The notes under the pieces: generated by a model | The model's database searches: none | Told to the model about the DNA's origin: nothing | What the model saw: the letters and a program-made list of their open reading frames with translations, nothing else | DNA from: Barthelona sp. PAP020 | Lineage: Eukaryota | Reading direction: 5' to 3' | Length of the DNA: 38,177 nucleotides | Assembly (NCBI GenBank): GCA_040182905.1 | Contig: JARQWU010000072.1 | Span: 1-38,177, forward strand | Shown here: piece after piece, positions 2,897-38,177 of the stretch | Numbering within the stretch: position 1 is the stretch's first letter | How the letters are laid out: each line of letters opens with the position of its first letter | Made by a program: the position numbers and the translations under genes

Positions 2897-3017
2897 TAAC
2901 TATCAAGTTTTAAAAAAAAATAAATAATAAATATAATAACCAAAATGGTAACCATTAAATTTATTTTCTCGTAAACGACATGCCTAAATAAAAAAAATCA
3001 AATTCCTAAAATTCAAT

Positions 3018-3461: not shown

Positions 3462-3566
3462 TTTTGACAGTAAAATCGAAGGAAAAATAAAATGAAAACT
3501 TTTGGAAAGAATTAACAAAAATTTTTTTTTTTAATCCATTGTTTTACTCTTTTAAAAACTCCAAAA
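3462..3566. promoter_or_regulatory. Putative bidirectional promoter / 5' region shared by divergent BTF3 and RPL18
   Basis: Only 105 bp separate the two start codons. The region is very AT-rich with a central A/T tract (~3517-3534). Both ATGs are preceded by CAAAA. Confidence 0.55.
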
Positions 3567-4291: not shown

Positions 4292-4443
4292 TCGGAATAT
4301 TATATAAACTAACCTTTGGAGTTTTCTACATTTTTTATTTATGTTGTTAATAAAACAGAATCATCCCTTTTTTGTTGAACAATCAAAGAATTTACGACTA
4401 TCAAAAAAATAAAATTGAAAGTTTATTGAAAAAATGATGTAAA

Positions 4444-5889: not shown

Positions 5890-5936
5890 AAAATAATAAA
5901 GCTACAAACAATAAAACAAAAAAGAATATCCTTCAT

Positions 5937-6395
5937 TTATTCCTCATGATCTTGAACTTCAGCCATCTCGACATTTGCTTGTTTTGCTTCAATAATTGGA
6001 CCTATGTGATTCAAAAATTTTGCCATTTCATTAATTTCATTATTTAATGCCACTGCTTTATCTGTAAGTGATTCAAGTTTTCTGTCAAATATATCAAGTG
6101 TTTGTTCTTTATTACGCGCACAAAAAAAATCTTGACCAATATCAACCAAAAATTCATTATCTTCTTCTAAAATACCAGGTACATACATAGTTTGAGTTAT
6201 TGGAATCAAACAAGTTTTTCCAATAACTTCTTGGGTAATATCTTCAACAGCTTCACGAGATGATCTGAATCTGGCGACAACAGTTTGCAATCTACTTGAT
6301 TCGCGATTCAATTGAGTGTGTTTGTCATCGATTTGTCGATGCATTTGAATTAATTGCTCCAAAGGATATTGGTCTAAATCTGGAATTTGATTCAT
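5937..6395 (-). CDS. PFDN5: Prefoldin alpha subunit 5 (PFDN5/GIM5), 152 aa
   Basis: Coiled-coil ends flank LIPITQTMYVPG...FLVDIG..FF..R.......IFDRK, matching the alpha-prefoldin LVPLTSSMYVPG...VLIDVGTGYY pattern. The N-terminal DL.Q.PLEQL is typical of subunit 5. Confidence 0.88.
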   Translation of the reverse strand: MNQIPDLDQYPLEQLIQMHRQIDDKHTQLNRESSRLQTVVARFRSSREAVEDITQEVIGKTCLIPITQTMYVPGILEEDNEFLVDIGQDFFCARNKEQTLDIFDRKLESLTDKAVALNNEINEMAKFLNHIGPIIEAKQANVEMAEVQDHEE

Positions 6396-6737
6396 ATTTG
6401 AAAATAAAAAAATCGGTTTTTCATTTTCAATTTGAAAAACTTGTGTTTTGCATAAATTTTGGTAACACAGCTCTTTTTAAATATTTATTGCACTGACGTT
6501 CGTTGGGTATATTTGTTAAATAACATATCCCAATGAAATTTTTATTGGTCAATTACGACAAGAAAAGTGAATTCGGAATGGTGCAGAGTCATTCTCACAA
6601 GAAAATTCTATCCCACAAGCATTTCGGTCATCTTCAACCAAAACCAAAATCAAAAAACAGATTTAAAAAACGTTATTTATAAAAGTGAATTTATTTCAAT
6701 TCTTTTTTTTTTATTTTGATACCAATAAAAACAATTT

Positions 6738-9700
6738 TTAAAGGTCAAGATCTGGGAAGTCTTGATCATCTTCATCCTTTGCATTTTTACGTCTACGTCT
6801 ACGTTTCTTCTTGCCTTTATTAGCAGCAGCGGATGCACTGTCAGTATTTAAAGCTGAAAGGAAGGAATTGGCTGCAGTATCTTGAGTTTTACCACGGCGT
6901 TTTCTGGGGGTATCATCATCATCTGCTTCTTGAAGTTGACCAGTCTGATGTATCTCAATGTTCACATCTAGTTCCATAGCTTCAACGTCTTTTCTTTGTT
7001 CTTTCAAAGTTTTCTTTGCATCAGCTTCAAGAATAGGATTATTTTCATTTGTTTCGGAAACTGAAGAAACTGTTTCTTCAGTTTGAGAAGGTTGAACAAA
7101 CACAGTGTCAGGAGTTTCCTTTTCTTCTTCTTCTTCATCCAAAGTTTGTCCAATGTATTCAAGATATGTGATTAACATTGAATGCAAAGCAACAGCTTCT
7201 TGTTCAGTTAATTCACCAACAATTTGTGAATCACAGAATTGACGAATTTTGGCAATAACATTGAAATCGAAATTGGAAATGATAACAGGAACCCATTCCC
7301 TGAAAACATTGTCTATTCTCTTGTATTTGATTAAAGTTAATGAAACAGTTGTATTGTTTTCCTTAGCAAATTGCAATTCAGCAATAACTGATTTCAAAAT
7401 GGAATCCAATTCTCTTTCGAAAGAAGGTTTTCTCGGAGTTTCAATTTCTTGAGAAGGTGAAGCAAAATTCTCCTTTAAAAGAGATTTCAATAAATTAATT
7501 AAAGAATCCAATTTCATTTGAGGGATTGCATAAGGTCTAGAAGCATCAACAGAACCAGCAATTTCTTGATGGACTGTCAAATTCATTTCAGACCAAGATT
7601 TCTTTACTAAACAAGATAAGAAATATTCAATTGCTTCAATACGATTAACAGGAATAATTTCAGGTAAACCGATTTCAATTTTAGAAGAATAATGATTGAT
7701 AAATGCTAAAATTGGATCAGGAATTTTCTCGATAACAATATCCAAATTCTTTTGTTGTTTGCCTGTTAATTGTAATTCAACGTTATCAGTTGCAGCGTTT
7801 TTAAACAAATATAAGATCTCTTTATCAACGGCAGTCAATTCAACATTCTTTAAAACTTTGAATAATTTATTCAAATGACAAACACGGTCAATGTCAATAA
7901 TGAACCTTTCTTCTTCCAAATAAGGGTCTTCAGTCAATCTTGTTGGTTTTGAAGCTGTAGTTACTAATTTAACAAATGTTGATGCCAAAACTGTGTTAGT
8001 CATCAATTGTGTCAAATCATCAAGACATTTCTTTTCTTTTTCAGAAATATTGTCCAAACAAGAGGTGTTTATAATTGCAACTATATTCTCCAAAACTTCA
8101 GAATCAACCTCATGACCACTAATCAGATCATTACAAACGTTCGAAACAACATTACAATTCTTTCCAACTAAAGATTTGATCAAATCTTCATCTTGAGGGT
8201 TTATTTCAAACTCTTCCATGTCACCATGCATTAAAGCAGTGTAACCAACCTCTAATTCTTTCAAAATGTCTCTTTCGTTCTTGAAAAGGTCAAATGGATT
8301 GATAACATTCAATAATTTAACCAGGAAGTCAAGTTTTTTGGGTCCAAGAGTCAAAGGTAAAACAAAATTCTTGTCAACATCATCAAAAGATAACATTTCT
8401 AATAAGATGCTTGCGTTAATTCGAGACAACAATACAGGGTTTTGAGATTTGATACAATTCTTCAGTTTGTCAATGACTTCTTTTTCTTCAGCAGAAGGAA
8501 TTTCAATCTCGATTTGCTCATAACATAATTGGGCTTCTTCTGAAACCAAAGAGGCAGGAATACTGAGGTCAACTGCTTGTTTTAATTTACGAATGGTTTC
8601 TTCAAAATTAACAGCAAATTTGGACTTATGTTCTTGAATAACAGCCTCGGTTGTTTCAAAATTGAATTGACTGGCCAAAGTCGAAGCATCATTAACATCC
8701 TTAGTATAACGTGTTAAGTTATAAAGATCGAGCAATAATTCATTGTGCTTGTTCAATAAACTGGATACATACAAACATTCTAAAGGAGGCAATACAAGAT
8801 CATCTCCAGTATTCGAATTAATCATGATTTCAGCAGCACATCCTGCTTCTTCAGGTGTCATTTCAGACACTGGAACATTGCACAATGCTTGAACACATTT
8901 ATCAGTTTCCGATTCACTCAAAGTGATAGTTTTGTTATCTTCATGTGCCTTCGACAATTTGTCAGCAATGGATTTAATTGAAAGATCAATATTCTTTAAA
9001 TCTGGAATTGAAGCTCTTTGAATCATTTCAACAGCACATTCAGATTGTTCTGTTGTAAACACAGCATTGAAATCAATGGCAGAAGACACTAAACTTAACA
9101 CTTCAGCATGTTCTGCAGTGAATACATAAGAAGGTAATGTTTGAAGGTGTTTGTGTAAATCTGGAGCGGTGTTTTTATGTAAACCAACATTTGCACCACA
9201 TCTTATAGCAATGGTAAAACCAACAGCAATTGAAGACATTTGAGGATCAATGATAGATGATAAATGTCCATTTTCAAGATCAACATAAAGGTATTTCAAA
9301 ATACTCTTTAAATCAGAGCTTTCAATCTTCAAAGATGATTCGATCATGGGTAAATTGGCGTTTTTATGACGGTTAACCATTCCAACAATGTCACCCCAAA
9401 CTTTTTCTTCTCTGCTATCTAAAACAGCACCATATTGCATAATATTGTTGTAAAGTGAAGCTAAAAGCTCCAATTCCTTATATTCAAGTTCAAATGATTT
9501 ATTACTGTGAACAGCGTTCTTAACATTAGACAGTAATTCATAACATTCAACAACAGTCATAACAGAACTGAGATCAACATCTTCGTCAACAATATCATCA
9601 TCTGAATCTTCAACCGTAAATTTGGCATCTTTTCCAATTTCAACATCCATAGGAGTCATTAAGGACTGTAATAAATTAGCAGTACTTGCAGCAGTATCTT

Positions 9701-12700
9701 TTGATTTGGAAGGTTTCACTTTGGTCTCTTTTTCAAGAAGATCAAAATCATCAACTTGTTCATTTTCGGAGATATCTTCATCACTTTTATCAAAAGTGGC
9801 CTCATCCAACATTGCATTGAATGTTTCTTTAACTTTCATTTCCTTTACTTCTTCTTCATCACTACGAACAGTCATTGTATCAGTCATTGTATCATCAATA
9901 TCATCTTCATCACCAATCAATTTACTGAAGAAATCTTGTAAATTGGTGCCATCTTCATCAGCCATATTTCCTTCACCAGTAGCAGCAACTTCTTGCAATC
10001 CAGCCTTGGAAGCAGTCTTAATGAGAGTAGAAAGAGTTCTGACGGCATGTAACATGGGAGGTTCAGCTTGACCTTCTTTGGGTTGAGGTAGATTAGCAAG
10101 AGATGCAAGTAATTGAGAATTACCAAGAAGATCAAAAGTCTTCTTTTTAGGAGGCTCCTTTTTATTTCTTCTTCTCAACCAAACAATAACACAAATTAGA
10201 ACAATAAGTGTTGGAATAAGAGCAGCAAGAACAATAGTCATGATAGGCAATTCTTCTTCAACAACTGAAGGTTGTTCAACAAACACACTACCAACAACTT
10301 GAACAGGCTGAATGATATTCTTAGTTGTAACAACTACATCTTCAACTTCGACAACAATTTCACTGTGAACAAAGATCAATTGTGTCACAGACAATTCAGG
10401 TGCATTGAATGAAATGACTTCATAAGCACCTAAACTATCTAAATCTGAGTTCAAGGATTCAACAGTGAATTCTTCAAGCTCAACTTTTTCAGGAGATAAA
10501 GCGCTCAATTGAATATTTCTGTTGACAATTAATTTGTAGGAATATTTGGCATCTTCACAACCCATGTTGGAAGTTCCATCATAGATAGGAATCTTGTTGT
10601 CATCATTCCAACAAACCCAGAAATTTTTAACATACGTGACAATTGTTTCACCAGCATCAACTTTATCATTGGCATACAATGAAGAAACTGTAACAAATGA
10701 TTTGGCTTGAATGGTTGTACCAGTAGTATAAGGTCCAACATTATTATTCAGCAAATTGAATTTTACGAAATCTGCGGTCAATTCAGGACCGTAGAATAAC
10801 ATACCAAGACCAGAACTTGTAACATCGTCAAATGATGAAGATTTTGTCTTAGTAATCTTATATTTAAGTTCAACAGTTTTTCCAGTTTCATTATTGCATA
10901 ATTGAGATGTGATAGCATTATCAGGGCATTCAGCAACCTTCCAAATCACCTTATAATCATCACTGATAAGATGATGAGGATAAGAAACCCAAGAATCATT
11001 CTTGGTAGCCATTTGAACAACATCAACATTTAACATTGCAGTTTGTTTACCATATCTCAGGATTTCAAATTCATTTGATAAAGATGCACAATCAGCAGTG
11101 CCGTTGAACAGTGAATACATGTTCTTGTCTGTTTGTACCGGAAGAGTTGTTCTCCAAACCACCAAAGGTGAATATCCACTTCCTTCTGGATCTTGAATAA
11201 TACCAAATGACAGTATTTCAAGAGAAACATAGATGTCATCATCTTCTTGCATATCATTACAAACACCACTTTCACAGAGTTGAAGACTAATCAATTCATA
11301 ATTGAAGAAAGTTTCAAATTGTAAGGATTCGGTAAATGAATGCTTAACTTCATCAGCTTTAACTGTAGAACCATAGAATTTAACAACAGAAACTGAGAAA
11401 TCAGAATAATAGTCAATAACAGGTGTGTTATTGAACACAGCAACATCCAAAAGTAAATCAGAACGTAAACCTCTGCAAGCAGCAAACTCATCAAATGTGA
11501 AATGACCTGTGTATCTAATTTCAGAACAAGATGTGTTTGTAAGAGTCCAATATTGTCCAGGTGTAGAATATGAGGGATATACCAATGAATTTATGGCGTA
11601 TCTCATATCAGCAGCAGGTGCAGTTGTTCCGAATTTATTTAATGATATAGATTCCAACAATGAACGATCTCTGTTTTCACAATTGTTCGCTTCTTTAACT
11701 GTACGACCAGAAGGTACATACAATTCGAAATCAAGTGCATAGAAACCTCCACGAATATAAGGGGTATCAACAATAATTTCCAAATCCCAAGTTTCATCAT
11801 CAAAATTAATGGTGATTGTAGGTTCTTCCATTGTTGTAGGAATATCACTCTCAACACCTTCACAAGTATCACTGACCAAATAATACCAATCATCACAAAC
11901 TTCGTCACGAGGAGTACCATCAAGATTGGCAAGTAAGCAAGTTGTAGAACTATTACACCAACCACAGAAAGAATAAGCAACACATTCATCTTGTGTTTTC
12001 ATAGATTCACAATCTTTTCCACAATCGAGTCCATCAAAACCATAATCACAAACACAACTATCAGGAGTACATTCACCATTCCATAATTCAATAATACCAG
12101 TACCAACAAATAGACCATCATCTCTCTTGTAATTACCAGAGGTAAGAGTAATGTTGGTACTTGCATCTGGAACAAATAATACACCAGTATTTTCAAGAAC
12201 GAGTTCTATGAATGACATGTTCTCATCAACGGTAACCATACCACTGGAAATGTATAATGAAGTCATGTAACTATGATTTGGTAAGGCATCATTTGTAATT
12301 TGTTGGAAGAAAACTCCCTTTCCATTACAATAACCATTCCAAGCACTAACATCTCTTCTATCAATAGTAGTGTCATAATCTGCACAAGGAATATTAACCT
12401 TCACTGGAGCACCTGAGTTTTCAACAATGTGTTCCGTATCGAAATAAGTTTTACCACCATTGATTTTCATTGATTTCAAACCAAACTTCAAGTTACGTTC
12501 AATTCTTAATTCAGCATCATCATTTACAGACATCCAACCATTGACATTCAAATCATTTCCTGATTTGATGTGAACTTTACCTTTCTTACTAACAGAGAAA
12601 TGTGCTTCAGAACCGAAAGTCAAGTTATTGTGGAAATTAACAGGTTCATTTTGATAAATAATATCCAATTGACCCTGAAGAATCTCAACAATTCCATAGA

Positions 12701-30700: not shown

Positions 30701-33700
30701 CATTTGAAACAAAGTCGGATAATATCAATGATGTTCCAGAAAAAGTACCTGAAGCATCAGAATTAACAGTGATTGAAGCGTCGGAACAATTGAAAATTGC
30801 ATCTGTGATTGTTAAAGAATTGGTAATTTCCAAAACTTTAGTGGTAATTTTCTTTTCATCGGAAGTGATAATGAGCATATCATCAATTTTAATCTTTCCA
30901 ATCTCTTCAAAATTACCCTTTCTCCATTCTAATGAAACAACTTCCGTGTTTGCAGCAATAACAGTACCACCATTGAGAATAACTGAATCTAACTGACAAT
31001 ATCCATTGCAATCTAATTCACCATCAATGACATTAATATCTTGTGCAATATTTGTTTCTGCATCAGTAATCAATTTCGCACCTTCTATGTATAAGAAAAC
31101 AGTGCTTGAACCAGAGAAAGATACTTCACCAGAAATGAAACGAATTAATCCGGTACCAGTTGTAGAAGACGTGTTAAGGAAAGAAATATCATTAATAATA
31201 TGTAATTCCCCATCAACAGTGATGATGTTATGAATTTCAGAATCAACACCACTCAATGTTAATTCACCACTGGTTATAGCCAATGTACCTTTTTGAATAA
31301 TAGACATTCCAATATCAACATTGACAGTGTCTGAAGTAATAGTGTCATGATTATAAATTATACATACGCCAGTTGTTGAATCATCAAAAATATTTGTGTC
31401 CTCAATTGTAGAGAAAGTAATATCATTCAAATTGATAATGGTTCCATCAACACATGTTGTATTACCACCATCAAATTTAAGTTCACCATTGTTGATAATT
31501 GTGGCACCATCAATTGTTGCATTTTGCTTCATTGAAACCAAAGCAGAAGCTCCAACAACCACACTACCAGTACCAGTCAAAGTACCATGAATAATTGCCA
31601 TTGATTGAACAGTGAATGATTCAACTCCGGAAAGGCAACCATCAGTTTCAATATTTAAGGAACCAGCAACAATAGGGCTGACAACTTCAAAACATCCTTT
31701 TTTGATCAATATACTTCCACTTCCAAAGTTTGGTGAATTCAAATCAAATTTGAATGATCCTCCTTCTTGAATGACAGAACCAACAATGTTTGTAGTTCCA
31801 GTCAATTCTAAAGTATTATCTAAACAAATTAATGATGAACCAGACACAGATTGAACTGTACCTCTAATATTTTGGAGAATACCAGCCGTTGAATTGAAGT
31901 AAAGTTTATCATACACAGTAACAGTACCATCGAAAACGAATTCATTGATAAAAGAAAATGAAGCTCCCTCAACAGCACCACTGATACCAGAAATAATTTC
32001 ACCAGAACCATATGTACGAACATTAATTGTTGTAAAAGAATCAGAATCAACGGAAGTATCTTTGTGGAAAATACCAGAAACATCAATGAAACCATAACCA
32101 CTAATTTCATCATACGTGGAACAAAGATCACGGAATGTACCTGCAGATTTAACATAAATAGAACTATTAGAATATGCCAAACTATCACCAATAACAAAAC
32201 TACCAGCAATCCAAGAAAACACACCACCAATACTTAATCTAGAATTCAAAACGAAAACTCCAGTAACTTCAATGGAACCACCATGTGTGAAGAAACGACC
32301 ATCACCAACAATGAAACCATCATTGATTGTAATCTGATTGGCTTCAATGGTACCATCATTAATAATTCTTGAAGTACTCTTCAACAAAACATTGGCAACT
32401 AACACTTCAGTATCTTTCTCCACAACGAGAACAACACCAGACAAGTCCAATACAGTTGTTGCATGTGAAATCCAAGATGATTTTCTTGTGAAGGTAATTA
32501 TTTCAGAACCAGAGAAAGTAAAAGTACCTTCAAAATCTAAAGTACCATAGAAATAGGAAAGATGGGTGTTAATACCAAAAGATCCTGTACCTGTTAAGCT
32601 TCCAGAGTCTTTCAAAACAAACAAACCATTGGTACCAGCAACAAAATTGACAGAACCTTCCAAAAGAACAGCACCATACAAGTAAGTGATACTTGAAGCT
32701 TGAATGCTGCCATCACTTTCAATTGTAAACGAATCATTGAAATGTAAAGGAATATTGATCTCCAAATCGACAGACAAAATACCAGAGTTGATGAAAGTAA
32801 TCAGTGATGTCAATGAATCAGCAAGTGAAGGATTAATACCAACACTACAATCAACACAAGAAGGCAATGGTTGAACATTCACAACATTAATTTGTGCATT
32901 ATCAAGCACAATACCGGAACTGCCACCTAATTGAAGTGTAGTTACATTTAAAATAACATTTTGAAGGGTTAAAACACCTTCTAAATTGATTTCTTCAATG
33001 TGAACAAATTCTAACTCCAAAGATCCAGCCATACCAACAATTGAAAGTGAAGAAATGTTTAATTTTTTCACAGTAAAGTCTGAAGTTTCAATTGTAAATG
33101 TCGAAGAAGAAGCAACTACTTCATCCATATAACAATATCCACCATATAAACAAGTGAAATGAGATCCAGAATGTAAAGTTAATGGAACACTAATATTTAC
33201 ATCATAAACGGTAAAGTCATGAGTGTCATTTGTTAATAAATTACCATCACCATTAAATGTGACATTTTTCATAATAACTGGATGATCAATAATAACAGTC
33301 TCACCTACATTGAAAACGGCATCATTTAGATTCAAATCACTGTCACCAACAAAACTTACATTCTTCAAAATTTCAAATGAAGTTTCTTTGGTGATCAAAT
33401 TAGCAATGGCCATCGAATCAGAATCAGCATCTAACAATGAATCAACGTAGATAACTGGTTCACGAATTTCAATATGTTCAGATGCAACGTTATTGAAGTT
33501 TTCAGTATAAATTTCAAGAGCAGTACCCAAAATAGTTGTTGTTGTTCCACCAATGTTAAAATCGGTTGTGTGAATCATAACTTTATCCCAAGTAGAACTC
33601 AAATCACCAACAACCCAATTTGAAGTAATATAAAAAGATTCAGCAAAGATACTGAGTCCAACATCAAGACTGGGCAAGAAATTGATAAAATCATAATTTG

Positions 33701-36700
33701 CGGTACCTCTTTCACTAATGGTTAATGTATTAGCATCAATTCGTTGAAGATACAAAGGTAAAGCTGTTGTTGCTAAATCTAAGTTGTCAAACTTAATTCC
33801 AATGGGATAATAACTGAATTTAGAATCTATTTTAACAGCACCAGGAATTGTATAAGTTTCATTGGAACAAACAATTGTCAAATGTCTTTGATCGGTATCA
33901 GTTCCAGTAACTCTATTCATCCAAATATCACCAGAATAATTGTTTATTTCACGAATGAAAAGTGATTGATCACCAGTAGCTTCAATATCAAAGTTAGAAA
34001 GTTGGTTGAAAGTGTTGTGAGAATCAGCTAAAATTAATTTGGCTGATCCTGAACCTATAAAGGAATCCAACCAACGAATCCATCCAGTACCAGTTGAAAA
34101 TGATATGGTCAAATCTTTTGTGAATTCAACACTACCACAAGGAATATCAAGGAATGGATAGATTGACAATGATTGATCTGTTGCAATTGATAATTTTCCG
34201 ACAACAACTGTTGAAGCAAGGATCACTTCAAGAGGATCAACTTTTGCAATTGACAATTCACCAATAATAGTCAATCTTGGAATAATGCTACTTGAAATAG
34301 AGCCATCAAACTTGAAAGTACCAGATTGATGAGTTGCCTTACCGAAAATAGCAAACACACTGTAAGAATCATAACCAGGATCTGCAACAGTAACCGCAAT
34401 ATTATCAAAAGTAATGGCATTATCATTAAATACAAATGAAAGATGAGAAGTTTGAATATCAACAACCAATTTAGTGGCTTTCTTTGAAACAAAAGATCCT
34501 TCTCCAGTAATTGTACAGGAATCAATATTGAGAATATCTGCAAAAACAGTGCCATGAATTATCATCGTGGAACTTGTGCAAGATAGAGTTGTCACATGAA
34601 TACTGGAATATTTTCCCAATTCAACGGTACCAGCACTTGTGATGGTCATTGTATTAGCATAAATATTGTGTTCAAAAGTAGCAGTTTCTCCAGAAGCTGG
34701 AACTGTAGAAATAACAACATCATCTTTGGAACGAGGTTGCATTCCTGAATCCCAGATGGAAGAACCTGAACTGGGTAGTGCTGACAATGTGTGAGTAAGC
34801 ACATTACTATCAGTTGATGAACAAAGAGAACCAGAATTATCACCAGAACAAATACATTGAAGTGATGTAGCATCAATATAATTTCCTGAAGCACAATTGA
34901 CGGCATATTGACAAACACCACCGGCACGACTCACAGAAGCACAATTACAAGGAGCAGATGCTGTCGTAACACCACCTTCACAGTAATCAATACCGACTTT
35001 CAAATGATCATAAGTGTCTCTCATGTAGAATTCACTCAGGTATGGTGAGCCACTGAAAACAATAGACTCAAAATCACCATAAATATGATCTGCTTTAATT
35101 AATGAAACAACACTATTCAAAGTACCTGACGAATAATCCACATAAATTTTGCCACCACGAAGATATGTAACTGTAGATGTAATTAAAGTTCCAACAGAAG
35201 CTAAAGTAAAACGTAACTCTCCATAATTGGCAAAGTAAATGATATTTGCACTCTTTCCAGCAATTAAATTGAGAGTACCGAAATTGTGAACATTTCCAAA
35301 ACCAGATGAAACATCTAATGTACCATAGTTCATAACAGTTGTAAAAACAGTGCTTGCAGAAGAACCATCTTGGGAAATCGTACCATTGTTATACACAATA
35401 TCACCAAATTCTCCCGAAAAAGATGCACTAAGTGTAATGGTACCCAAATTGACCCAAGATGCATGATTATAATCACTAGCTCCAGTTAAAGCAACAATAA
35501 TACCTTCATTAACTTTAATACGGAAGTCATAATTGTTATTAGTAACAGTAACAGGATAAACAAATGTGGTATCTAAATCAAAAACAATTTCAGATGTGGC
35601 AAAATCATCCCAACCAACACTGATAGTCTTCAAATTGAACACCGAATGGAACCAAACCAAACGAATGCCTCTAAAGTAAACAGTAGATGTATCAGGAACA
35701 GCCCATAAACCTTTTTGAACAACGGTACCAGGTCCTTTAAGAACCAAAGATTTACTCATGTCAAATAAAGTTGTAACCTCTCCATTAACAGATTGAAGAG
35801 TTAACAAATCAGTTACGATGACATTTGTTAATGTAATGTTACCATAACAAACAATACCACACATATCTCTAATTTCAGAATTGAGTGTTGTATCATGATA
35901 ACCCTTGATATAATCAACATCAACATGGAATCTTAACGATCCACCACCTGAAACATAAACTTCAGAATTGAGATTCACAGCAATTGTTCCAATGAAATTG
36001 ATAAAACCAGCATTCACTTTAATTGTATCAGCTATTATTGAACAATCATTGCAGGTAAAATGAGGATATGTATTTGCATCTCCACCAACATCTAAATAAT
36101 TAGTTTCAAATGTACCATTTGAAGAATCAGCATAATTAGAATCGAAAACACCTCTCAGGTACATCTTTACAGTTCCTTGAGATTTAATCAATCCACGATT
36201 CTCCACGGGGGAAAGGAACTTAATATGACCATTAGAAGAGAATAAAATTGAACCTGTAGGACTCACAATAATCTTTGAAGTACGAGAAGCAACACCAATA
36301 TTTCTATCACTAGTATCAGTTCTATAATCAGTGAAATTTCCATTTATTGTAAAAACGGTGTTTGATGCCAGAGTAATATCACCTGTTTTTAAAGTGACAT
36401 TCTTGACAACAAACTTTTCATAAGGAATAGTCAAAGCAATATTTTGTTCAAAATCACCACCAACAGTTAAGGAACCAGTCCCTGCAAAACCATTGGATTT
36501 TACGATCATATCACCATCAACTTGAAGCGTAATACCTGAACCAATGAACAGAATACCACTGTTTAAAGTAAATGATGGAGCTTTCTTTACTTCTTCATTA
36601 TTTCTTTTTGTTTCAAACCTAATTTGTCCAACAGAATGTGTGTAATCAATATAATTGAAATCTGAGCCAGCACCCATGATTAAGATTGAATCTGAACTTT

Positions 36701-38177
36701 GGAAAATAGGAGACCTTCTAAAAATAACATTTTTAGTATGGACAGTTGTTGAGGAATGAACATACAAAACAGCAGAAAATATAACATCATCAAACATAAC
36801 TTGACCAGTTCCACTGACTTCAACTTGATTTTTGGCACCATCGAGATATAATAAAGATATATTTTGCTTGTATCCAACAGCAGGAGCAAATTTCAACTTA
36901 CCGTTGTCACGAATTAATATTTTAGTTGACCAAAGATCAGCATCCTTCAAAAATTGAATAACTGCAGCATTTAGCAATTCTAAACCTGAACCAGCAAAAT
37001 TTATTGAATAATCTTTGAAATTTACATCAAAAGAAAGTGTAATAGTACTTTCCATGTTGATGAAACCTCTATTTTCAAATAAGTCTTGCTTAGACGATGA
37101 TGAAACAGTCAAACCAGTCATAATTGTAAGAATGTGAGAATTGATGAAATGAATTCTCTCATTTGCATCAGCAGAATAAACAATTGCATTATAAATTTCA
37201 AATATGCATTGATTCTCCAGAGTCAAAGATCCATAAAGATAAATGTTATAACCAGAAGAAACACCACTAAATGAATCGCCAACAAAAGTAACATAGGCAT
37301 CTTGATAACCATAAATACGAACATGAGAAGCAAAAATAGGGGTTTTCAATTGTAATTCACCCCAAACATACAAATAACCATTCAAAAACTTGATAGAAAT
37401 ACTATCATTCAAATCATAAGCATACATCTTTCCAGAAAGTTCAGTTGTGACAAAGAATTTGCCGAAATCAACGTTGAGGCTGTCTGTTGAATAAGTTTCA
37501 CCAATAGAGGTATTTGAATAGTGATTATAAATAACTGCTTGTCCGTCAATATCTAAGACAGAACCCGCTTCTAACTCATAATCACCATAGAATCTATCTA
37601 TTGCACTTCCTTGAATTTGATAAAGACCAGTACCTTTCAAGAAAGATCCAGGATAGTTATAACCGGGTGTAGCATAACGACGATAAAAACTAGAATATAT
37701 TGTAAAATTACCATAGTTATGGAAAGAATTGTCAGAATATGCAATATTTTCAACTACAGTAAAATTACCATAATTGATAAGATGAGCATCACAATGGAAT
37801 GAACTATAAGTTTCAACGATTCCATAATTAACAAATTTAAAGTCTTCTTCACTTCCACTTCCCGAAAACAGATATAATTGAACAGTCTTTTTAACAATCA
37901 TAATGTTCAAATTGTTAATAACAGTATCATAAAGGTATATTGTAAAACTGTAGGATTTAACATTCCAAATAGCCTTATTCATGATATCAGTGGAAGAGAA
38001 GAAAGTAGAATCATAGAAGTAAATTTCTGCATCTTCTTCGAAATATAATTCAGCATGATGGGGCATTTTAACTTTGAGAGTAGCTTCAGAGTTAATATAT
38101 CCATCCAACCAAATATATTTCAAAATATGTAACTCTCTGAAATGAATGTATGAATTAGCCATGTATAAACGGCCAAT
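6738..38177 (-). CDS. Giant single-pass type I membrane protein (>10,479 aa, 5'-truncated by the window) with beta-solenoid-like repeats, EGF-like, LamG-like, PSI and FRAS1/FREM2-like domains
   Basis: A stop-free frame of 31.4 kb. Upstream of the track's ATG (38162) the frame reads ATT GGC CGT TTA TAC to the window edge, and MANSY... is not a signal peptide, so the true start lies outside the window. There is one 23-aa hydrophobic helix followed by RRRNKK, and many N-x-S/T sequons N-terminal to it. Confidence 0.93.
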   Translation of the reverse strand: MGRLYMANSYIHFRELHILKYIWLDGYINSEATLKVKMPHHAELYFEEDAEIYFYDSTFFSSTDIMNKAIWNVKSYSFTIYLYDTVINNLNIMIVKKTVQLYLFSGSGSEEDFKFVNYGIVETYSSFHCDAHLINYGNFTVVENIAYSDNSFHNYGNFTIYSSFYRRYATPGYNYPGSFLKGTGLYQIQGSAIDRFYGDYELEAGSVLDIDGQAVIYNHYSNTSIGETYSTDSLNVDFGKFFVTTELSGKMYAYDLNDSISIKFLNGYLYVWGELQLKTPIFASHVRIYGYQDAYVTFVGDSFSGVSSGYNIYLYGSLTLENQCIFEIYNAIVYSADANERIHFINSHILTIMTGLTVSSSSKQDLFENRGFINMESTITLSFDVNFKDYSINFAGSGLELLNAAVIQFLKDADLWSTKILIRDNGKLKFAPAVGYKQNISLLYLDGAKNQVEVSGTGQVMFDDVIFSAVLYVHSSTTVHTKNVIFRRSPIFQSSDSILIMGAGSDFNYIDYTHSVGQIRFETKRNNEEVKKAPSFTLNSGILFIGSGITLQVDGDMIVKSNGFAGTGSLTVGGDFEQNIALTIPYEKFVVKNVTLKTGDITLASNTVFTINGNFTDYRTDTSDRNIGVASRTSKIIVSPTGSILFSSNGHIKFLSPVENRGLIKSQGTVKMYLRGVFDSNYADSSNGTFETNYLDVGGDANTYPHFTCNDCSIIADTIKVNAGFINFIGTIAVNLNSEVYVSGGGSLRFHVDVDYIKGYHDTTLNSEIRDMCGIVCYGNITLTNVIVTDLLTLQSVNGEVTTLFDMSKSLVLKGPGTVVQKGLWAVPDTSTVYFRGIRLVWFHSVFNLKTISVGWDDFATSEIVFDLDTTFVYPVTVTNNNYDFRIKVNEGIIVALTGASDYNHASWVNLGTITLSASFSGEFGDIVYNNGTISQDGSSASTVFTTVMNYGTLDVSSGFGNVHNFGTLNLIAGKSANIIYFANYGELRFTLASVGTLITSTVTYLRGGKIYVDYSSGTLNSVVSLIKADHIYGDFESIVFSGSPYLSEFYMRDTYDHLKVGIDYCEGGVTTASAPCNCASVSRAGGVCQYAVNCASGNYIDATSLQCICSGDNSGSLCSSTDSNVLTHTLSALPSSGSSIWDSGMQPRSKDDVVISTVPASGETATFEHNIYANTMTITSAGTVELGKYSSIHVTTLSCTSSTMIIHGTVFADILNIDSCTITGEGSFVSKKATKLVVDIQTSHLSFVFNDNAITFDNIAVTVADPGYDSYSVFAIFGKATHQSGTFKFDGSISSSIIPRLTIIGELSIAKVDPLEVILASTVVVGKLSIATDQSLSIYPFLDIPCGSVEFTKDLTISFSTGTGWIRWLDSFIGSGSAKLILADSHNTFNQLSNFDIEATGDQSLFIREINNYSGDIWMNRVTGTDTDQRHLTIVCSNETYTIPGAVKIDSKFSYYPIGIKFDNLDLATTALPLYLQRIDANTLTISERGTANYDFINFLPSLDVGLSIFAESFYITSNWVVGDLSSTWDKVMIHTTDFNIGGTTTTILGTALEIYTENFNNVASEHIEIREPVIYVDSLLDADSDSMAIANLITKETSFEILKNVSFVGDSDLNLNDAVFNVGETVIIDHPVIMKNVTFNGDGNLLTNDTHDFTVYDVNISVPLTLHSGSHFTCLYGGYCYMDEVVASSSTFTIETSDFTVKKLNISSLSIVGMAGSLELEFVHIEEINLEGVLTLQNVILNVTTLQLGGSSGIVLDNAQINVVNVQPLPSCVDCSVGINPSLADSLTSLITFINSGILSVDLEINIPLHFNDSFTIESDGSIQASSITYLYGAVLLEGSVNFVAGTNGLFVLKDSGSLTGTGSFGINTHLSYFYGTLDFEGTFTFSGSEIITFTRKSSWISHATTVLDLSGVVLVVEKDTEVLVANVLLKSTSRIINDGTIEANQITINDGFIVGDGRFFTHGGSIEVTGVFVLNSRLSIGGVFSWIAGSFVIGDSLAYSNSSIYVKSAGTFRDLCSTYDEISGYGFIDVSGIFHKDTSVDSDSFTTINVRTYGSGEIISGISGAVEGASFSFINEFVFDGTVTVYDKLYFNSTAGILQNIRGTVQSVSGSSLICLDNTLELTGTTNIVGSVIQEGGSFKFDLNSPNFGSGSILIKKGCFEVVSPIVAGSLNIETDGCLSGVESFTVQSMAIIHGTLTGTGSVVVGASALVSMKQNATIDGATIINNGELKFDGGNTTCVDGTIINLNDITFSTIEDTNIFDDSTTGVCIIYNHDTITSDTVNVDIGMSIIQKGTLAITSGELTLSGVDSEIHNIITVDGELHIINDISFLNTSSTTGTGLIRFISGEVSFSGSSTVFLYIEGAKLITDAETNIAQDINVIDGELDCNGYCQLDSVILNGGTVIAANTEVVSLEWRKGNFEEIGKIKIDDMLIITSDEKKITTKVLEITNSLTITDAIFNCSDASITVNSDASGTFSGTSLILSDFVSNAPTCQFINYGSIVNSDGTNNETKQIQWEFVNYGSFVSHDYLIFSGIISQGDSGSIYSDGKIELAANGVSTGSFVVEGTEILFTKGNWVFEGDVFSCNNTCVFKELCEDTSSTLEINSVFEIDNTMLLYGNGTLIINHDNSFIGVEINGINTVLEISVYKEVVFADVTFTQGTINIDGVFNVSNSLTMEQGLVTGNGICNVHGTFDLITEIVKDFEFVAFNIYAVTTLVDGHIHLGESVSFVVVSEGSLLCNKDNSSVYTNSGEKGTLYVEGTMTIAVSDLFNISCIVRSSGTITISSGSTVYQLESLYLEDNTLLVESGAELHIGGLFEVEFGSTLGIEGTVDFNNVGNLILNGHFVANMDIYFFDNSQFTLNEEGTYDSVFAVNNKLVFSNYSVFTLANTKTNVMPCVIEENAKLIIEYGYFASFYDLHVYGTVQTRGTFNTTYDSTVTFYGGSVWTRIIPSYVSAQWYDSNYWYQFHTFYGVLNFVNGTASLDDRIVISTFTKAHIENFNTYRVSTSDDTHLVSYGLLEIDCSISDCYLQLHLRLNYNVTLVKTGSYELYSSFSNLWLPMTQVDFDILDGNNDWNTFPVVNVLNGTMKLDYLYTTEDSYYCFFSFYIETNSTLIFTSVIHFGLDANVSGNGTIVMDTGSGTQVSSAYPDSQLRGNWNFTGELIQKSGYTSIEYNYFNRNCTNVEPYYCIGTKINIESLASKLYVQGGVLRLRGEFVKGVLPTTIMTGGTLRLTNENSMSSVFVFGENSVFQDCTIYDNWWSTLTHTASYMNPGNNSVVQRISGDVPFRIESGYSSLYGDFGATGFSFFVEKNGILTINETVTVHNIDNQGTVYLYATLKLYRRVGSSYGTFFAMNDVVLQLLGYDDQRVHDRATITNTIFNVQENKTLTFNFDIYRMVHNKGTDDWTSYLQNVTIAGETNSTLIFYNQNYLRIWGITTENTTVVLQNTKLIIYPEDQWVKGDVIIDENSQLYVMGNETLGGGFDSIIVKGNFLPHDNAFVRTLVMSNDSSSTPAISGKANVIIENFDFRYGKVEYEVDATIVVNGSMILDTDETKSFISGRIVLNETANSTFINGQLIGSRLELINYGIFNVDPILDVFTSGSNPVTLINHGDINIKGNNYTVEMNLVIENYGSLTKSNESLAVFNNGGLTNHKNGTIYINNGHLIFRGGITTFDGYLVGTIDTGLNISLIFESTAIVYILPDAILEMNEVVVSFNNVLSGIYGSFISIHDDLIIFESGVHYLYTSNFTNSHTILVSGGDVLFAYEFAPSIHLAGGRLLSIVSSVVFNESMLFEYGIIDSTGEIIFNQTVSFVSDSYDWNNTEYETLLFDQQSVVVISEHCTTTIDGGNITLNDATIKVQGSLVFINGTSQMLSSESFGKVQVLEGGSIVLDPSDEASYFGMNIYNEGYVNKTNPITSTVLRGQFNNKNIFKVKGVLYLESIGQTTGTTIIEAGANIIVTSINFKVIAPAFLNGTGIMSVDGDGYLTVSSDVEHVNINGFSVYNGTFDTKCKLFEVSELNIYGGLLQCSKGLSLTSMLFENGNITGVGKIIVNNDATIQTDGVKYISAAQLIFEDSTVNFAGGDVIINERGSMEVAKNAIFNVNSAVGSIGTNEGVEGRFINKGIVNFVDTDDFSISAEMLNRYESECNLADSHIVILGDNNYNTSTIYIDADSTFEVRDGDHDFDRNTTITGEGIFLVNGSYVSMLCNVTLSAEGLFQVSSGDVVLKPGYTQTDAAFLLEDGSVIFKGEIVKPFVIPSISITGGKMQVDAHLTTDNITLIGDGTFQVSGTTVVNEDVTQDDNATQSGSGLIDIFGDFAFTGGYISGLGSTYVRENLVISSTHYKLMDQRILLANERVEWYSGHIHGQNDAYFIISNLTSMYMGSVSLLKNTGKATFSNSGNVTKSDYPIEVLVDYDSKTMCLSPLFALYDVDTDVGSYTFDSSVGLHSVGKQIAIEASHALLFGSEFSIGWTFIFDNESIVNTTFGMESAIEISIYCEEYGVNCTIDAKIWTEETSIHLTGQTNDYLADNYVNITFVDDFIPIMVVYNSSLVLLSVNGTTVDYASCVGTISEVTNLFVVANSDVNVTLKNFAIFDTSISLTDVHNYGNDTINTDNLVGFVDFTTNLDDEPFMAIGNCDSMYPASAETNWMPNEKVSRSRIEWSIENIENFTIINGTSQLVGGGYSQGLLAAEETGVIEFGQEKLYTTGGKIVAKGKGIEISSGVQDIDAMEAEIVVSGSAVVNLQPSSCGLDRTGVDLVIDGGTVNVERPLLDSENCFTIKSLRMYNGTLNVQGNLLILNSANISSPTAYIVLDSGVITSQTFTNFSEGSIMGSGDFKVDGDTDWINGKVLDSVTFTNLGNLNFSSEADKVINCRKFINYGYMDYDEGNLVILGSTGIVNYGSFFVTKPEASLSIPDNSTAFLQNRGQFRLAPGGNISLGIFLDNYGTFEIRDNTHIHISGNSAYNGILDMDESSSFIFEEGTATFSSGMVIKGNGSLLINGTSLITKATFNITDGASVDIYNGTVYFMPPFNFIGDCILSLYGGTLDFAGSDNEDPFQLVATNIFDGDLNIKSPVELSGGLNITNGSVSITAGYLKSYGSIIFEGGYISGLGDIEAVGDFIWKGGEMVGFGRTITSGTLFINSVGTLTWSQRSIVCNGDFDWSSGNINVTNDGSLTISNEGRIISHVGGDIYMSGNFQVNGTLIMNGSINIYAPLILYGTIEQNDGVLGLKKSAQIHGSIDMAAGTSIEIRDAMLIFEKNCTITGQGVISTELANVFVKGSITGNELRIDDGNLYVEGGAELNTCANGVIINDGIIDVITSDNGNTVTLCKVIQNNGILKIAFGITVYSQSYTMNSGSISQQGDLIASNAIDLVTGSVDGAGLLKSEGTFNLDNVTISGLDGRIVVLGTATFSDKDHLIEYRSVEVADATIAGSIIFDYGASLINNGEVTFTNEIVIMDKKSNVLAASVNNLGIWNIDTYLDLKVTSTINNVVKFALGAKLRFESDVQISGTLSPTNGGDVYYVSFESGAFSIRNTATLTNGEYVINGTAVGTVACDFVDIHGFNFNADDDSTVLSLEADISFTPTSTELVIDNGEVQLIKDASKRYVALPVVHLNNDVKLKLNRDAYGSAITVNVNDNAIVEALERTIFDVTTFNQNSGLVDGPLGTIIADTYNFYGGYQNGTGFTKATNFNFLTTAAKYIERNIQTDGSGSVMDWKVGNIELCGSGSIKISQDTTFNIESDSSIQLIGNSECVGCQFKIYGEVHLVSANNVIITGLISTYIENMLAVDLGSLSLNTGTITSVNAGGSFVVEGGADLSVIGGTLYLEEGGSLESAGAVTINSIHDDSYMKGEVTLTAGSFELIAKNLKLFDSCTFTNPTIPLEINGADSNLLIMESSNVTIGSLTLTAGYFEPRADMSVGILTLTNGVVSQDVVEMSVVNITSKLNVDSPTISKNITILSSVDVEYLLSANPSISEGSIVIMKNSITLRNGVVIDCGISSTDNCSFIFDTSSTVTISQNLALNTQGHSVIYMNGVVEQNGGVIVAGHIEINGDCDLTGGTFQFTQNSTITGSIDVLSATVEYYSGTHILETDGTIVCDGTGISMKNADTLVVSKGQWTLNSGCTFEMNNGLFQAIDGTSIVNPNQPLVVQTPAKMLFDSVEAGSYHSIDKLVIDDGTVEVVGDLVVSNTLELINGRLEGVGNITTDVFKWGATSSDNPIIEGSAALYVENQLYVYDSPLQLSGFEIVIELNSNVDGSVVTAVNGGSLTIGGDATIDISSLTFIADGNSYFTNKGTMTVSVAADIQGLKNEGSLSVSNGASLELSKNSIVDGIVLIDGEVTFDTGNHSIVSSAQITVNDPGYILVKNSSTVFDGRLVVVDSNRLLFSTSPTFEIGPHAVFSSAPIVTSNNVKVVVGDYSADGFDKVTLKNFEIVDGTMLSCEGNCDTDAGTTIVLNGGTLEIHDEMTINSLSTLQVKANSNINGTGKLIVYGEVTFDEDPVFLETRLDIMANAEVTVLAAGVLHLAKQGIVYQPTDEEFKIIGSLITDIHPSAPTGVYHIDRITISEGSITVSLNGKIETNYLEISGGSILLDDEIQLQDKLEIMGGSLTGVKPIVGPYEFLVTGGNYVEISCNLELLAGAKAAITDGEVHAKLGFVLTNPSGVPLQINGPNAVLIFEDTGDNSNYTVYSIQQTNGNVTLSNRLNVQGDYVMTGGVLVVKEELDITGSFTLNRDVTTSPKILDSGNINVNGHMYWKYGTLSGKGRLLTVGGNFIQQGMLSLEDDPKILVLGNFEVEDGYTISKDNATIEIGEGGSFTISSSQDYRVGDTTDSNQNLLKINNGSLNIDSTKRVYFNWPFESTGDVLCNYGTVFFSNTTTEGQWVVEAACTITLRNGNHSLRGDNATIYGAGSVILESDMYMYAPIGLTNPIRGFQVKSGRLFCYEGMYCSGVLSQTGGEIYFDPLTGDATYNITILKLSGPGTSYLTSVQIKDELIIEDGTLSVPEYLNTPKLSLRGGSIVNVGLIEVTDTLEFTAGILRDNLTFLTENMNVYGDINIYGYPLIEVNSSYVHQSGTFNVESGLIHIVGGEHSETVFQLSSSTNLKGEQNILDVQGSLSIEAAVDFNVEWNFIIQNTSSCSMGAVVLNHLNITTNGLVNIMSSCSFSLIDGNHTIGENGTIYGEGTLQINDGNTTIAGNVSLIQKARGFIISGGNVSFANGFVSVGYLKQYDGDILFTPGNYSTDVFTSLAGSVSFSNVDNVTLAVNDLTVSTNWYLNEKTLISVGNTFAWNDGISGLGTIRVEAGATCEPGFESLSETSIILDGIMTIPRGVFNIEDGAMIYVAENGELTANDGTVIIPESGFGLSNNGNLIISGEVSIGGLVSEGNITFISGKLTLTNSSKVGGNLELDTFSLLQFGNGNHNISFQISGGSVSIDNEDAVVYVEDVYVISSSWILQSGTVKQVARPSDVTHLPFMQMFGGRYELVEGEFTHAIGSLAVQGGHVQINSDTEFIHSFNISGGVINGTSKIVSGYLLLEEGEITVANEIHVLNQLDVSITTPLILDGMTLFNNGTMNWEKGMIKAKSGQIHNYGSVLITGEEAGFYADYLGPAFINNGSVVKTSSGEMTIAGLKHMGTLQMNGGSIRLTNTSDLDSGDIELNFGASLVFASGTHSLLSTLGGDGTGAVLIDEDYGTTTTAAIDSILTVSMIQLTKGTLNLYHNSTKTSSDNIIVQIDDGILHMYNDGDSGTFGRFYQNGGTVFFHANVSVSDFYVSGDRIVADGFVDSTGTIFFESGIIEGNGGLIGESRLQVADVGPILRPAYFNCSLGIMVRDGGELFIEKPLVFYPETPILVNDGVIHFKNDTTYTIGTLTIFGSNTYIEDDTIVNATNIKLRSGSLIENNGSINVNDTFYGEGGSLNSTGFITADTYTWSDGSINGPTLITVNTFDIEGGAEKKLSQNTIVHVNTSVDWKAGLLRLHQNSSIVCLENCQIDIEGSTCSSDLDDDSFIYNYGTMMKTTSSTITSKNIINHGGIVHSVGTWIFDGVMLHFGNAQFITSTQFIGVEHKFFNGAQFTWTSGIPVTDTKLTFVEGNWTISEPLWFSSSVLSLENGASLNNTLQKTIVTSDLTLNVTANVSDTISHLDYLKISTSGKAYVDAPLYVDKCVFDNGELYISSILVCKNLEWAQTEVVGTLNKGTVNVTDDFVFTTSYDHVLSGNATMNIDVLEFTWSQDDIILNDYSKFVICDNTTLKLTKDYPKFTTSNNSYVIVYGVIDKESEGDLNMQHVVMYGELNINSGDFKINGGSEVTGDITISEETNLVIDGDGVVLKEMNITVGSNAEFIIDSSDILLENCTINCGILILKSDTVLTLKNTKINTSTIVNEDGNPVKIVCLAGSCVIDVDYLNVTNGLQLNKTVLNIDYYFKWYKENIVFTDYSEINVLINGTFDVLTTNEYGIIQFDEDSKLNVYGVMIHTTNVKTVLNCSTDFYGIVEILQGQLDIIYQNEPVNFHNNLTFGSEAHFSVSKKGKVHIKSGNDLNVNGWMSVNDDAELRIERNLKFGLKSMKINGGKTYFDTEHIVENSGAPVKVNIPCADYDTTIDRRDVSAWNGYCNGKGVFFQQITNDALPNHSYMTSLYISSGMVTVDENMSFIELVLENTGVLFVPDASTNITLTSGNYKRDDGLFVGTGIIELWNGECTPDSCVCDYGFDGLDCGKDCESMKTQDECVAYSFCGWCNSSTTCLLANLDGTPRDEVCDDWYYLVSDTCEGVESDIPTTMEEPTITINFDDETWDLEIIVDTPYIRGGFYALDFELYVPSGRTVKEANNCENRDRSLLESISLNKFGTTAPAADMRYAINSLVYPSYSTPGQYWTLTNTSCSEIRYTGHFTFDEFAACRGLRSDLLLDVAVFNNTPVIDYYSDFSVSVVKFYGSTVKADEVKHSFTESLQFETFFNYELISLQLCESGVCNDMQEDDDIYVSLEILSFGIIQDPEGSGYSPLVVWRTTLPVQTDKNMYSLFNGTADCASLSNEFEILRYGKQTAMLNVDVVQMATKNDSWVSYPHHLISDDYKVIWKVAECPDNAITSQLCNNETGKTVELKYKITKTKSSSFDDVTSSGLGMLFYGPELTADFVKFNLLNNNVGPYTTGTTIQAKSFVTVSSLYANDKVDAGETIVTYVKNFWVCWNDDNKIPIYDGTSNMGCEDAKYSYKLIVNRNIQLSALSPEKVELEEFTVESLNSDLDSLGAYEVISFNAPELSVTQLIFVHSEIVVEVEDVVVTTKNIIQPVQVVGSVFVEQPSVVEEELPIMTIVLAALIPTLIVLICVIVWLRRRNKKEPPKKKTFDLLGNSQLLASLANLPQPKEGQAEPPMLHAVRTLSTLIKTASKAGLQEVAATGEGNMADEDGTNLQDFFSKLIGDEDDIDDTMTDTMTVRSDEEEVKEMKVKETFNAMLDEATFDKSDEDISENEQVDDFDLLEKETKVKPSKSKDTAASTANLLQSLMTPMDVEIGKDAKFTVEDSDDDIVDEDVDLSSVMTVVECYELLSNVKNAVHSNKSFELEYKELELLASLYNNIMQYGAVLDSREEKVWGDIVGMVNRHKNANLPMIESSLKIESSDLKSILKYLYVDLENGHLSSIIDPQMSSIAVGFTIAIRCGANVGLHKNTAPDLHKHLQTLPSYVFTAEHAEVLSLVSSAIDFNAVFTTEQSECAVEMIQRASIPDLKNIDLSIKSIADKLSKAHEDNKTITLSESETDKCVQALCNVPVSEMTPEEAGCAAEIMINSNTGDDLVLPPLECLYVSSLLNKHNELLLDLYNLTRYTKDVNDASTLASQFNFETTEAVIQEHKSKFAVNFEETIRKLKQAVDLSIPASLVSEEAQLCYEQIEIEIPSAEEKEVIDKLKNCIKSQNPVLLSRINASILLEMLSFDDVDKNFVLPLTLGPKKLDFLVKLLNVINPFDLFKNERDILKELEVGYTALMHGDMEEFEINPQDEDLIKSLVGKNCNVVSNVCNDLISGHEVDSEVLENIVAIINTSCLDNISEKEKKCLDDLTQLMTNTVLASTFVKLVTTASKPTRLTEDPYLEEERFIIDIDRVCHLNKLFKVLKNVELTAVDKEILYLFKNAATDNVELQLTGKQQKNLDIVIEKIPDPILAFINHYSSKIEIGLPEIIPVNRIEAIEYFLSCLVKKSWSEMNLTVHQEIAGSVDASRPYAIPQMKLDSLINLLKSLLKENFASPSQEIETPRKPSFERELDSILKSVIAELQFAKENNTTVSLTLIKYKRIDNVFREWVPVIISNFDFNVIAKIRQFCDSQIVGELTEQEAVALHSMLITYLEYIGQTLDEEEEEKETPDTVFVQPSQTEETVSSVSETNENNPILEADAKKTLKEQRKDVEAMELDVNIEIHQTGQLQEADDDDTPRKRRGKTQDTAANSFLSALNTDSASAAANKGKKKRRRRRKNAKDEDDQDFPDLDL
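10176..10244 (-). other. Single transmembrane helix of the giant protein (aa ~9307-9329)
   Basis: IMTIVLAALIPTLIVLICVIVWL is preceded by acidic EEE and followed by RRRNKK (positive-inside rule). Confidence 0.92.
10290..11830 (-). other. Membrane-proximal ~510-aa beta-rich domain resembling the FRAS1/FREM2 C-terminal region
   Basis: SCSEIRYTGHFTFDEFAACRG, YTTGTTIQAKSFV, VKNFWVCWNDDNKIPIYDGTSNMGCEDAKYSYKLI and LIFVHSEIVV occur in the order of motifs recalled for the FREM2/FRAS1 juxtamembrane region. Confidence 0.55.
11862..12080 (-). other. EGF-like module followed by a PSI (plexin-semaphorin-integrin) domain
   Basis: NGECTPDSCVCDYGFDGLDC is followed by CESMKTQDECVAYSFCGWCNSSTTCL...C..W.....C, containing the CGWC PSI signature. 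Confidence 0.82.
12300..33300 (-). repeat. Protein-level tandem array of diverged ~250-280-aa repeats (about 20-25 recognisable copies)
   Basis: A recurrent (W/F)xxGxIxGxG...WxxGxI...F.N.G..K...N.G.L.V..G motif set occurs at roughly 740-840 nt spacing (e.g. ~30917, 30133, 27575, 26780, 26045, 25202, 23620, 22790, 21975, 21128, 17888, 17053, 16287, 15547, 14362). No nucleotide-level identity was apparent. Confidence 0.7.
24198..24947 (-). other. LamG/concanavalin-A-like (pentraxin-like) domain in the giant protein (aa ~4406-4655)
   Basis: Motifs EFSIGWTF, FIPIMVVYNSSLVLLSVNGTTV, TNLFV, VTLKNFAIFDTSISLTDVHNY and DNLVGFVDF parallel the LamG-type consensus (FTxxxW; WxHVxxTYDG..LYVNG; G.IDEVRIYxxALS..EI; GLVGYW.F). 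Confidence 0.68.
34821..34982 (-). other. Tandem EGF-like Cys-rich modules in the giant protein (aa ~1061-1114)
   Basis: CEGG...PCNCASVSRAGGVCQYAVNCASG...QCICSGDNSGSLCS contains two CxC-x(5-6)-G-x2-C units. Confidence 0.7.

Follow-up and report, generated by a model that had tools for sequence, protein, structure and literature searches.

A giant membrane protein with a predicted beta-helical rod and a predicted ZP-C-like base in the metamonad Barthelona sp. PAP020

The stretch of DNA analysed here (the window) comprises positions 1 to 38,177 of contig JARQWU010000072.1 of Barthelona sp. PAP020 (assembly GCA_040182905.1). Most of it is taken up by one reading frame on the minus strand, still open at the window edge, and the question is what protein this frame encodes and what such a protein could do for a unicellular anaerobe. 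We favour the reading that the product, called here the giant protein, is a sparsely distributed tether by which the cell adheres to surfaces or bacterial prey, and in which a beta-helical rod of about 150-200 nm would stand on an uncleaved base resembling the C-terminal domain (ZP-C) of zona pellucida proteins. Adhesion is deduced from the fold class and from the behaviour of the cells, and we put the probability of this reading slightly above one half (about 0.55).

The reading frame and the rod

The open reading frame (ORF) consists of 10,479 codons without any stop; the two other frames of the same strand have 540 and 1,338 stops over this interval. As the ORF is open at its 5' end, the mass of the product is at least 1.14 MDa. 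No signal peptide can be seen at the first methionine (residue 6), thus the start must lie beyond the window. Scans of metagenomes and of viral sequences found no 5' extension. The single transmembrane helix (Kyte-Doolittle score 3.03, next best 1.70) is directly followed by RRRNKK, and this arrangement suggests an extracellular part made up of the N-terminal 9,313 residues and a cytoplasmic part of the last 1,147. An initial annotation, made from the letters alone, had described one uninterrupted frame of 31.4 kb open at the edge, an ectodomain of more than 9,300 amino acids, one transmembrane helix, a tail of about 1,145 residues and a polybasic end, and our reading agrees with it on all these points. 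The features are listed below; P0001 and similar labels denote homologues described in the next section, and HMM stands for hidden Markov model.

6738..38177, minus strand: giant ORF, 10,479 codons, 5'-open (frame reading, stop counts)
34998..38177, minus: beta-repeat block 1, predicted beta-helix, residues 1-1060, start beyond the window (at lag 21, autocorrelation z 3.9; the internal repeat HMM matches less well here)
34821..34982, minus: Cys-rich pair of short EGF-like units, residues 1066-1119, eight Cys (sequence pattern only)
24918..34805, minus: beta-repeat block 2, predicted beta-helix, residues 1125-4420, with degenerate super-repeats of ~250-280 aa (periodicity, internal repeat HMM)
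24108..24917, minus: non-periodic insert of ~270 aa, residues 4421-4690 (periodicity absent)
12090..24107, minus: beta-repeat block 3, predicted beta-helix, residues 4691-8696 (periodicity, repeat HMM; colinear with P0002/P0032 and P0001)
12018..12080, minus: EGF-like unit, residues 8700-8720 (EGF_Teneurin, E 0.005, below the cut-off; Cys kept in P0001-P0003)
11883..12014, minus: PSI-like unit, residues 8722-8765 (PSI, E 0.002, below the cut-off; homologue P0027 above it)
11295..11831, minus: juxtamembrane domain 1, best-conserved beta domain, residues 8783-8961 (HMM of 15 non-BaSk members, E 8e-36)
10848..11285, minus: juxtamembrane domain 2, Ig-like sandwich in ZP-N position, residues 8965-9110 (predicted model)
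10287..10817, minus: juxtamembrane domain 3, predicted ZP-C-like, residues 9121-9297, last strand in the position of the external hydrophobic patch (EHP), two Cys (fold searches)
10182..10238, minus: single transmembrane helix, residues 9314-9332 (hydrophobicity, basic residues after it)
6741..10181, minus: cytoplasmic tail, residues 9333-10479, acidic linker followed by degenerate helical repeats of ~70-80 aa (alignment to barthelonid relatives)
6786..6818, minus: polybasic C-terminal patch, residues 10454-10464, which also ends P0001 (sequence)

The three repeat blocks amount to about 8,400 residues rich in Gly, Asn, Ser, Thr and aliphatic side chains. BLOSUM autocorrelation over the joined blocks, compared with 200 shuffles, gave z values of +8.9 and +8.7 at lags 6 and 7, +6.4 at lag 13, +4.1 to +5.4 at lags 19-21 and -14.8 at lag 3. 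Such a pattern is what a three-sided beta-helix with about 20 residues per coil yields, and we predict this fold for the repeats. All three blocks are periodic, as the beta-repeats of the initial annotation implied, and the same periodicity was found in P0001 and P0002; it is absent from the mid-rod insert, the juxtamembrane module and the tail. The super-repeats overlie the short periodicity. If a rung takes 25-19 residues and 0.48 nm, the two main blocks (about 7,300 residues past the EGF pair) would form a rod of 140-184 nm, close to the 150-180 nm estimated initially, and all three blocks one of 160-211 nm.

No Pfam or NCBIfam repeat model was significant on the repeats; PHROGs and NCBIfam gave scattered single weak matches on 17 repeat units, with TIGR02601 (E 0.29) in one of the 17. 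A profile of these units matched two of 177,635 PDB sequences at E<=10, the better being tapirin (4wa0, E 4.8e-4), which is described as a beta-helical adhesin (10.1101/359786). Tapirin resembles the giant protein in its Gly/Asn/Ser/Thr/aliphatic repeats and in a coil periodicity of about 20 residues. This weak profile match is the sole bacterial link. A translated search (tblastn) with a 790-aa repeat stretch found no match among plasmids, and one of the 63 candidates from a scan of prokaryotic genomes, a 26-residue match in an unrelated archaeal protein, was judged to be due to chance. The host, with spliceosomal introns and eukaryotic genes beside the ORF, is not a bacterium. With no bacterial relative found and a host-like G+C content at third codon positions (see below), the "bacterial-type" label proposed earlier describes at most the predicted fold of the repeats. 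Autotransporter passengers and chlamydial Pmp proteins are beta-helical adhesins as well, and the giant protein is about ten times as long as a typical passenger. Autotransporters and two-partner adhesins are bacterial and carry a C-terminal beta-barrel or two-partner secretion domain, whereas the giant protein has a transmembrane helix and a helical tail in eukaryotic type I topology.

The smaller modules are less certain. For the EGF and PSI units claimed near the membrane the corresponding models do match, but below the Pfam cut-offs; their cysteine pattern (8700-8765) is kept in the BaSk relatives. For the claimed distal EGF pair and LamG insert the cysteine pattern and the loss of periodicity are there, but the assignment stays at motif level: the pair gave no Pfam match at E<=10 and none in the PDB, and the insert likewise none in either. 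By eye the motifs of the insert look LamG/pentraxin-like.

Relatives

Searches of Pfam (11 tiles) and NCBIfam over the giant ORF gave nothing above cut-off, viral and metagenome scans found no relative, and word-seeded homologue searches had no match, which by the tool's own statement is weak evidence. A phmmer search of residues 8601-9350 against 1.84 billion representatives returned 31 matches at E<=0.001, the best five of which are hypothetical proteins of Barthelona sp. PCE, Barthelona sp. PAP020 (transcriptome), GEM-RC1 and TZLM1-RC, all described as BaSk metamonads (10.1101/2023.05.03.539051). These relatives, KAL0230858.1 (P0001), EP00792 P009526/P009527 (P0002/P0032), KAL0238416.1, KAL0223763.1 and KAL0231316.1, have the order of the giant protein, i.e. 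beta-repeats, EGF, PSI, three-domain module and transmembrane helix, and those of barthelonids share its helical tail too. They differ from it in that they are 23-30% identical, uncharacterised and none longer than 4,972 aa. The four examined at their N-termini begin within a repeat and have no signal peptide, thus they look 5'-truncated.

A single high-scoring segment pair (23% identity) joins P0002/P0032 to residues 5438-10340; P0001 aligns with residues 7018-9394. Because the RNA-derived P0002/P0032 is colinear over the C-terminal part of the giant protein, a relative is transcribed as one ORF of at least about 4,900 codons. The tail aligns with that of P0032 over 789 columns at 22% identity, and its helical repeats are common to the barthelonid relatives. 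It has no Pfam match of note, including to kinase, GAP or other signalling domains. The tails of the skoliomonad relatives are short and unstructured. In skoliomonad P0004 residues ~1-1480 consist of 373-aa units of this beta-repeat type, near-identical and arranged in tandem, which suggests that the rod has expanded recently. A tree of 20 modules (P0034 excluded as a near-copy) groups the window protein with four BaSk rows at 98/98, with long end branches, and on this evidence the source is likely a BaSk metamonad.

The juxtamembrane module is widespread in unicellular eukaryotes (metamonads, heteroloboseans and foraminifera), and for this reason the "animal-type" architecture given in the initial annotation is not supported. 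Its fusion partners include RGS after the transmembrane helix (P0029), C-type lectin (P0019), TSP3 (P0025), DUF11 with PSI (P0008) and PSI (P0027); the cytoplasmic RGS fusion hints at a use in G-protein signalling. The claim that the architecture is unlike that of any characterised protein stands, as none was found; partial relatives are known as unannotated records.

The juxtamembrane module

Structure searches with the predicted model of the module point to a ZP-C-like Ig fold for domain 3, adjoining the membrane anchor; identity to endoglin and betaglycan is 8-16%. In the model a tight hairpin leads from strand F to a strand at 511-525, which aligns with the final strand of six ZP-C or precursor chains (to 525-528), and with the filament chains and two ZP3 chains the alignment ends at 512-515. 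The EHP would accordingly be the final strand G, as predicted by the model. With homologue P0027 the Atlas gave ZP clusters in nine of ten rows at 0.80-0.85, which are leads only, and with P0003 no usable match. The BFVD fold search returned generic Ig-like rows only (template modelling score at most 0.15 by query), PDB sequence searches with the module nothing significant, and single-sequence AlphaFold of residues 8690-9316 no usable fold (predicted local distance difference test, pLDDT, 30).

The canonical ZP module is described as ZP-N plus ZP-C with eight cysteines and the capacity to polymerise (PMC13361971). The module studied here has no such set of eight conserved cysteines (Cys1-4 in ZP-N, Cys5-8 in ZP-C). 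Domain 3 has two, at 9189 and 9207, in all 21 rows of the alignment, both upstream of strand F, which has none, and domain 2 a single fairly conserved one at 9084 (12 of 21 rows). Because of these cysteines and because Pfam gave no ZP match (see below), we conclude that the module is not a canonical ZP module, and that domain 3 is, on the evidence of the model, ZP-C-like. Loss and reshuffling of disulfides are documented in endoglin and in nematode ZP-C (PMC7456536), therefore the missing cysteines do not exclude homology, and descent of domain 3 from a common ancestor with ZP-C is in our opinion probable. Domain 2 is a beta-sandwich in the ZP-N position, within the alignment to uromodulin (6zya 209-513), at a root-mean-square deviation of 30.8; among the matches listed there were no isolated ZP-N chains, and generic Ig folds score 7.7. 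Conservation within the family is highest in domain 1, which has three cysteines and an invariant Tyr and Trp and whose first 140 residues were modelled with pLDDT mostly 70-90. The fold searches, which bore mainly on domain 3, assigned it no fold, and it may have one of its own or be a divergent ZP-N. The sponge wreath domain, also considered, was set aside as it is described as vWFD-like (PMC11670116).

FRAS1, FREM2 and ECM3 also have a very large repeat ectodomain, which ends next to the membrane in a region that has no name and carries a basic site. The "FRAS1/FREM2-like" name given initially to the region was backed by no tool, and the tools point instead to a ZP-C-like fold, the most notable feature of the protein. 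A word-seeded alignment search over proteins of 1,618-4,620 aa had no match, which the tool itself rates as weak evidence, the Atlas matches listed included no FRAS1 cluster, and the Pfam tiles contained no match to VWC or to Calx-beta and CSPG, the latter two (as NG2-like repeats in the case of CSPG) being what is said to define the FRAS1/FREM family (PMC12749355).

In uromodulin a cut at a consensus site frees the EHP strand and triggers polymerisation (PMC7737619); endoglin and betaglycan are described as having no such site and as non-polymerising (PMC5464963). We looked for a loose basic motif (two basic residues, or RxxR, within 26 residues past strand F), and the counts are raw, without a chance rate: none of the five BaSk proteins (window protein, P0001-P0004) had it, and of the 16 rod-less members, one of which is a near-copy, 12 did. 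In the giant protein the stretch from strand F to the EHP contains no consensus basic site for cleavage. As its FG loop has no basic site and the hairpin keeps the last strand in place, it is predicted to stay membrane-bound together with its tail. In this it would resemble endoglin and betaglycan (TGFBR3), non-polymerising receptors. It differs from them in having two cysteines in the domain, an extra conserved domain upstream, a beta-solenoid of more than 8,000 aa instead of the orphan domain, a tail of 1,147 aa and a unicellular host. From the polymerising ZP proteins uromodulin, GP2, ZP2, ZP3 and ZPD the giant protein differs in lacking the eight canonical cysteines and the basic site, and its ZP-N is only putative.

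Function, alternatives and evolution

The tether could work as follows. The protein would enter the endoplasmic reticulum by a signal peptide encoded beyond the window, and its ectodomain, strongly acidic and with 174 sequons, would be N-glycosylated. The rod, stiff and acidic, would hold its distal binding end, and the insert midway along it, beyond the boundary layer of the cell. Without a basic site in the FG loop the strand in EHP position would remain attached, making the module a non-polymerising pedestal as in endoglin, and the conserved helical tail and polybasic end could couple the tether to the cortex or the flagellar skeleton and to acidic lipids. Several observations weigh against this proposal. 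The N-terminus and the signal peptide are outside the window. The beta-helix is a prediction, the tapirin match carries a high composition bias (11.6), and a profile of three colinear sequences found no beta-helix and nothing significant in the PDB. The module model is only moderate (mean pLDDT 62, predicted template modelling score 0.55), its Foldseek E-values to ZP chains are only ~1e-3, and Pfam Zona_pellucida and ZP-N matched none of 23 family members at E<=10, nor the three domains alone. Finally, transmission electron microscopy of three barthelonids shows the plasma membrane only, no extracellular structures and flagella without appendages (PMC13087550).

The same micrographs speak against the dense surface hair or glycocalyx suggested initially, which would shield the cell or alter its swimming. 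The acidic, sequon-rich, rod-shaped ectodomain and the repeat arrays of skoliomonads, such as the near-exact units of P0004, would suit such a coat, but a sparse tether fits the images better and we regard the dense array as improbable. A hidden site would also agree with a bare surface: the protein could serve as a scaffold or a sensor where the membrane is specialised (cytopharynx, posterior furrow or flagellar base), its rod spanning a narrow extracellular gap and its tail signalling or organising the cytoskeleton, like animal ZP-anchored tethers. Conservation of the tail over ~790 residues exceeds what a passive anchor needs, and the EGF-PSI-ZP-transmembrane order is receptor-like; however, the tail lacks signalling domains and the skoliomonad tails are short, and we consider this role unlikely, if somewhat less so than the coat. 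More doubtful than either is a ZP-type polymer as in uromodulin, in which a non-furin protease would cut near the membrane, the module would form a filament or matrix (e.g. of a cyst wall) and the rods would branch off from it. The predicted ZP-C fold does follow an Ig-like domain and an EGF unit, most rod-less members have a basic site before the anchor, and double-walled cysts are described in one skoliomonad isolate (PMC11603281). On the other hand, the giants have no such site, the model joins strands F and G tightly, shedding would lose the conserved tail, and domain 2 is only a putative ZP-N.

It is very improbable that the frame is not one protein, i.e. that it is an assembly artefact, foreign DNA or a spliced gene. 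The ORF is 5'-open and the organism has introns: RPL18 (3567-4291, plus strand) contains two spliceosomal introns, 3570-3627 (58 nt) and 3718-3805 (88 nt), removal of which leaves an intact 192-aa frame. Against this stand the complete lack of stops, the relative whose RNA assembly gives a single ORF across the C-terminal ~4,900 residues, and the G+C content at third codon positions, which is 0.21, uniform along the ORF and similar to the 0.18-0.25 of five neighbour genes, indicating a resident gene. Long near-identical internal repeats that could mis-assemble were not seen, and no in-frame intron candidate of the pattern GT..CTAAY..YAG was found. In RPL18 the first intron starts right after the ATG, and both have a CTAAY branch-point-like motif about 10 nt or less before the 3' AG. 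The neighbours are eukaryotic by Pfam (NAC, RPL18, MBOAT, prefoldin) and packed tightly in 2899-6738, with gaps of roughly 40-340 nt. A 750-aa ORF at 644-2896 (minus strand) has no Pfam or NCBIfam match; we take its first ~60 residues, by eye, to be like a RIIa/Dpy-30-type docking domain and the rest like a degenerate 5'-nucleotidase-like protein.

Returning to the tether and its base, according to a 2026 review the canonical ZP module is a metazoan synapomorphy, and its ZP-like relatives are confined to unicellular holozoans (PMC13361971). Among the papers listed by the literature searches none was seen to report ZP-like domains in metamonads, heteroloboseans or foraminifera; most subscription papers were outside these searches, and this is not proof of absence. 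Since the three-domain ZP-like module is common to these three groups, it may date to the last eukaryotic common ancestor. We would give even odds to the wider proposal that the ZP module is far older than animals, possibly as old as that ancestor, that cleavable rod-less members build protist coats by the mechanism of egg coats, and that in barthelonids a copy that cannot be cleaved became fused beneath a beta-helical tether of megadalton size. If true, a ZP-C-like fold in metamonads would place the beginnings of this extracellular assembly module closer to the eukaryotic root, and the small cleavable protist members would be simple proteins in which to ask whether EHP-gated polymerisation is ancestral. 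One barthelonid species is described as having, among free-living eukaryotes, the smallest reported genome, 10.2 Mbp (10.1101/2023.05.03.539051). A surface protein of more than 1.1 MDa, apparently intron-free and conserved in barthelonids, would be a first molecular candidate for attachment or prey capture in these anaerobes.
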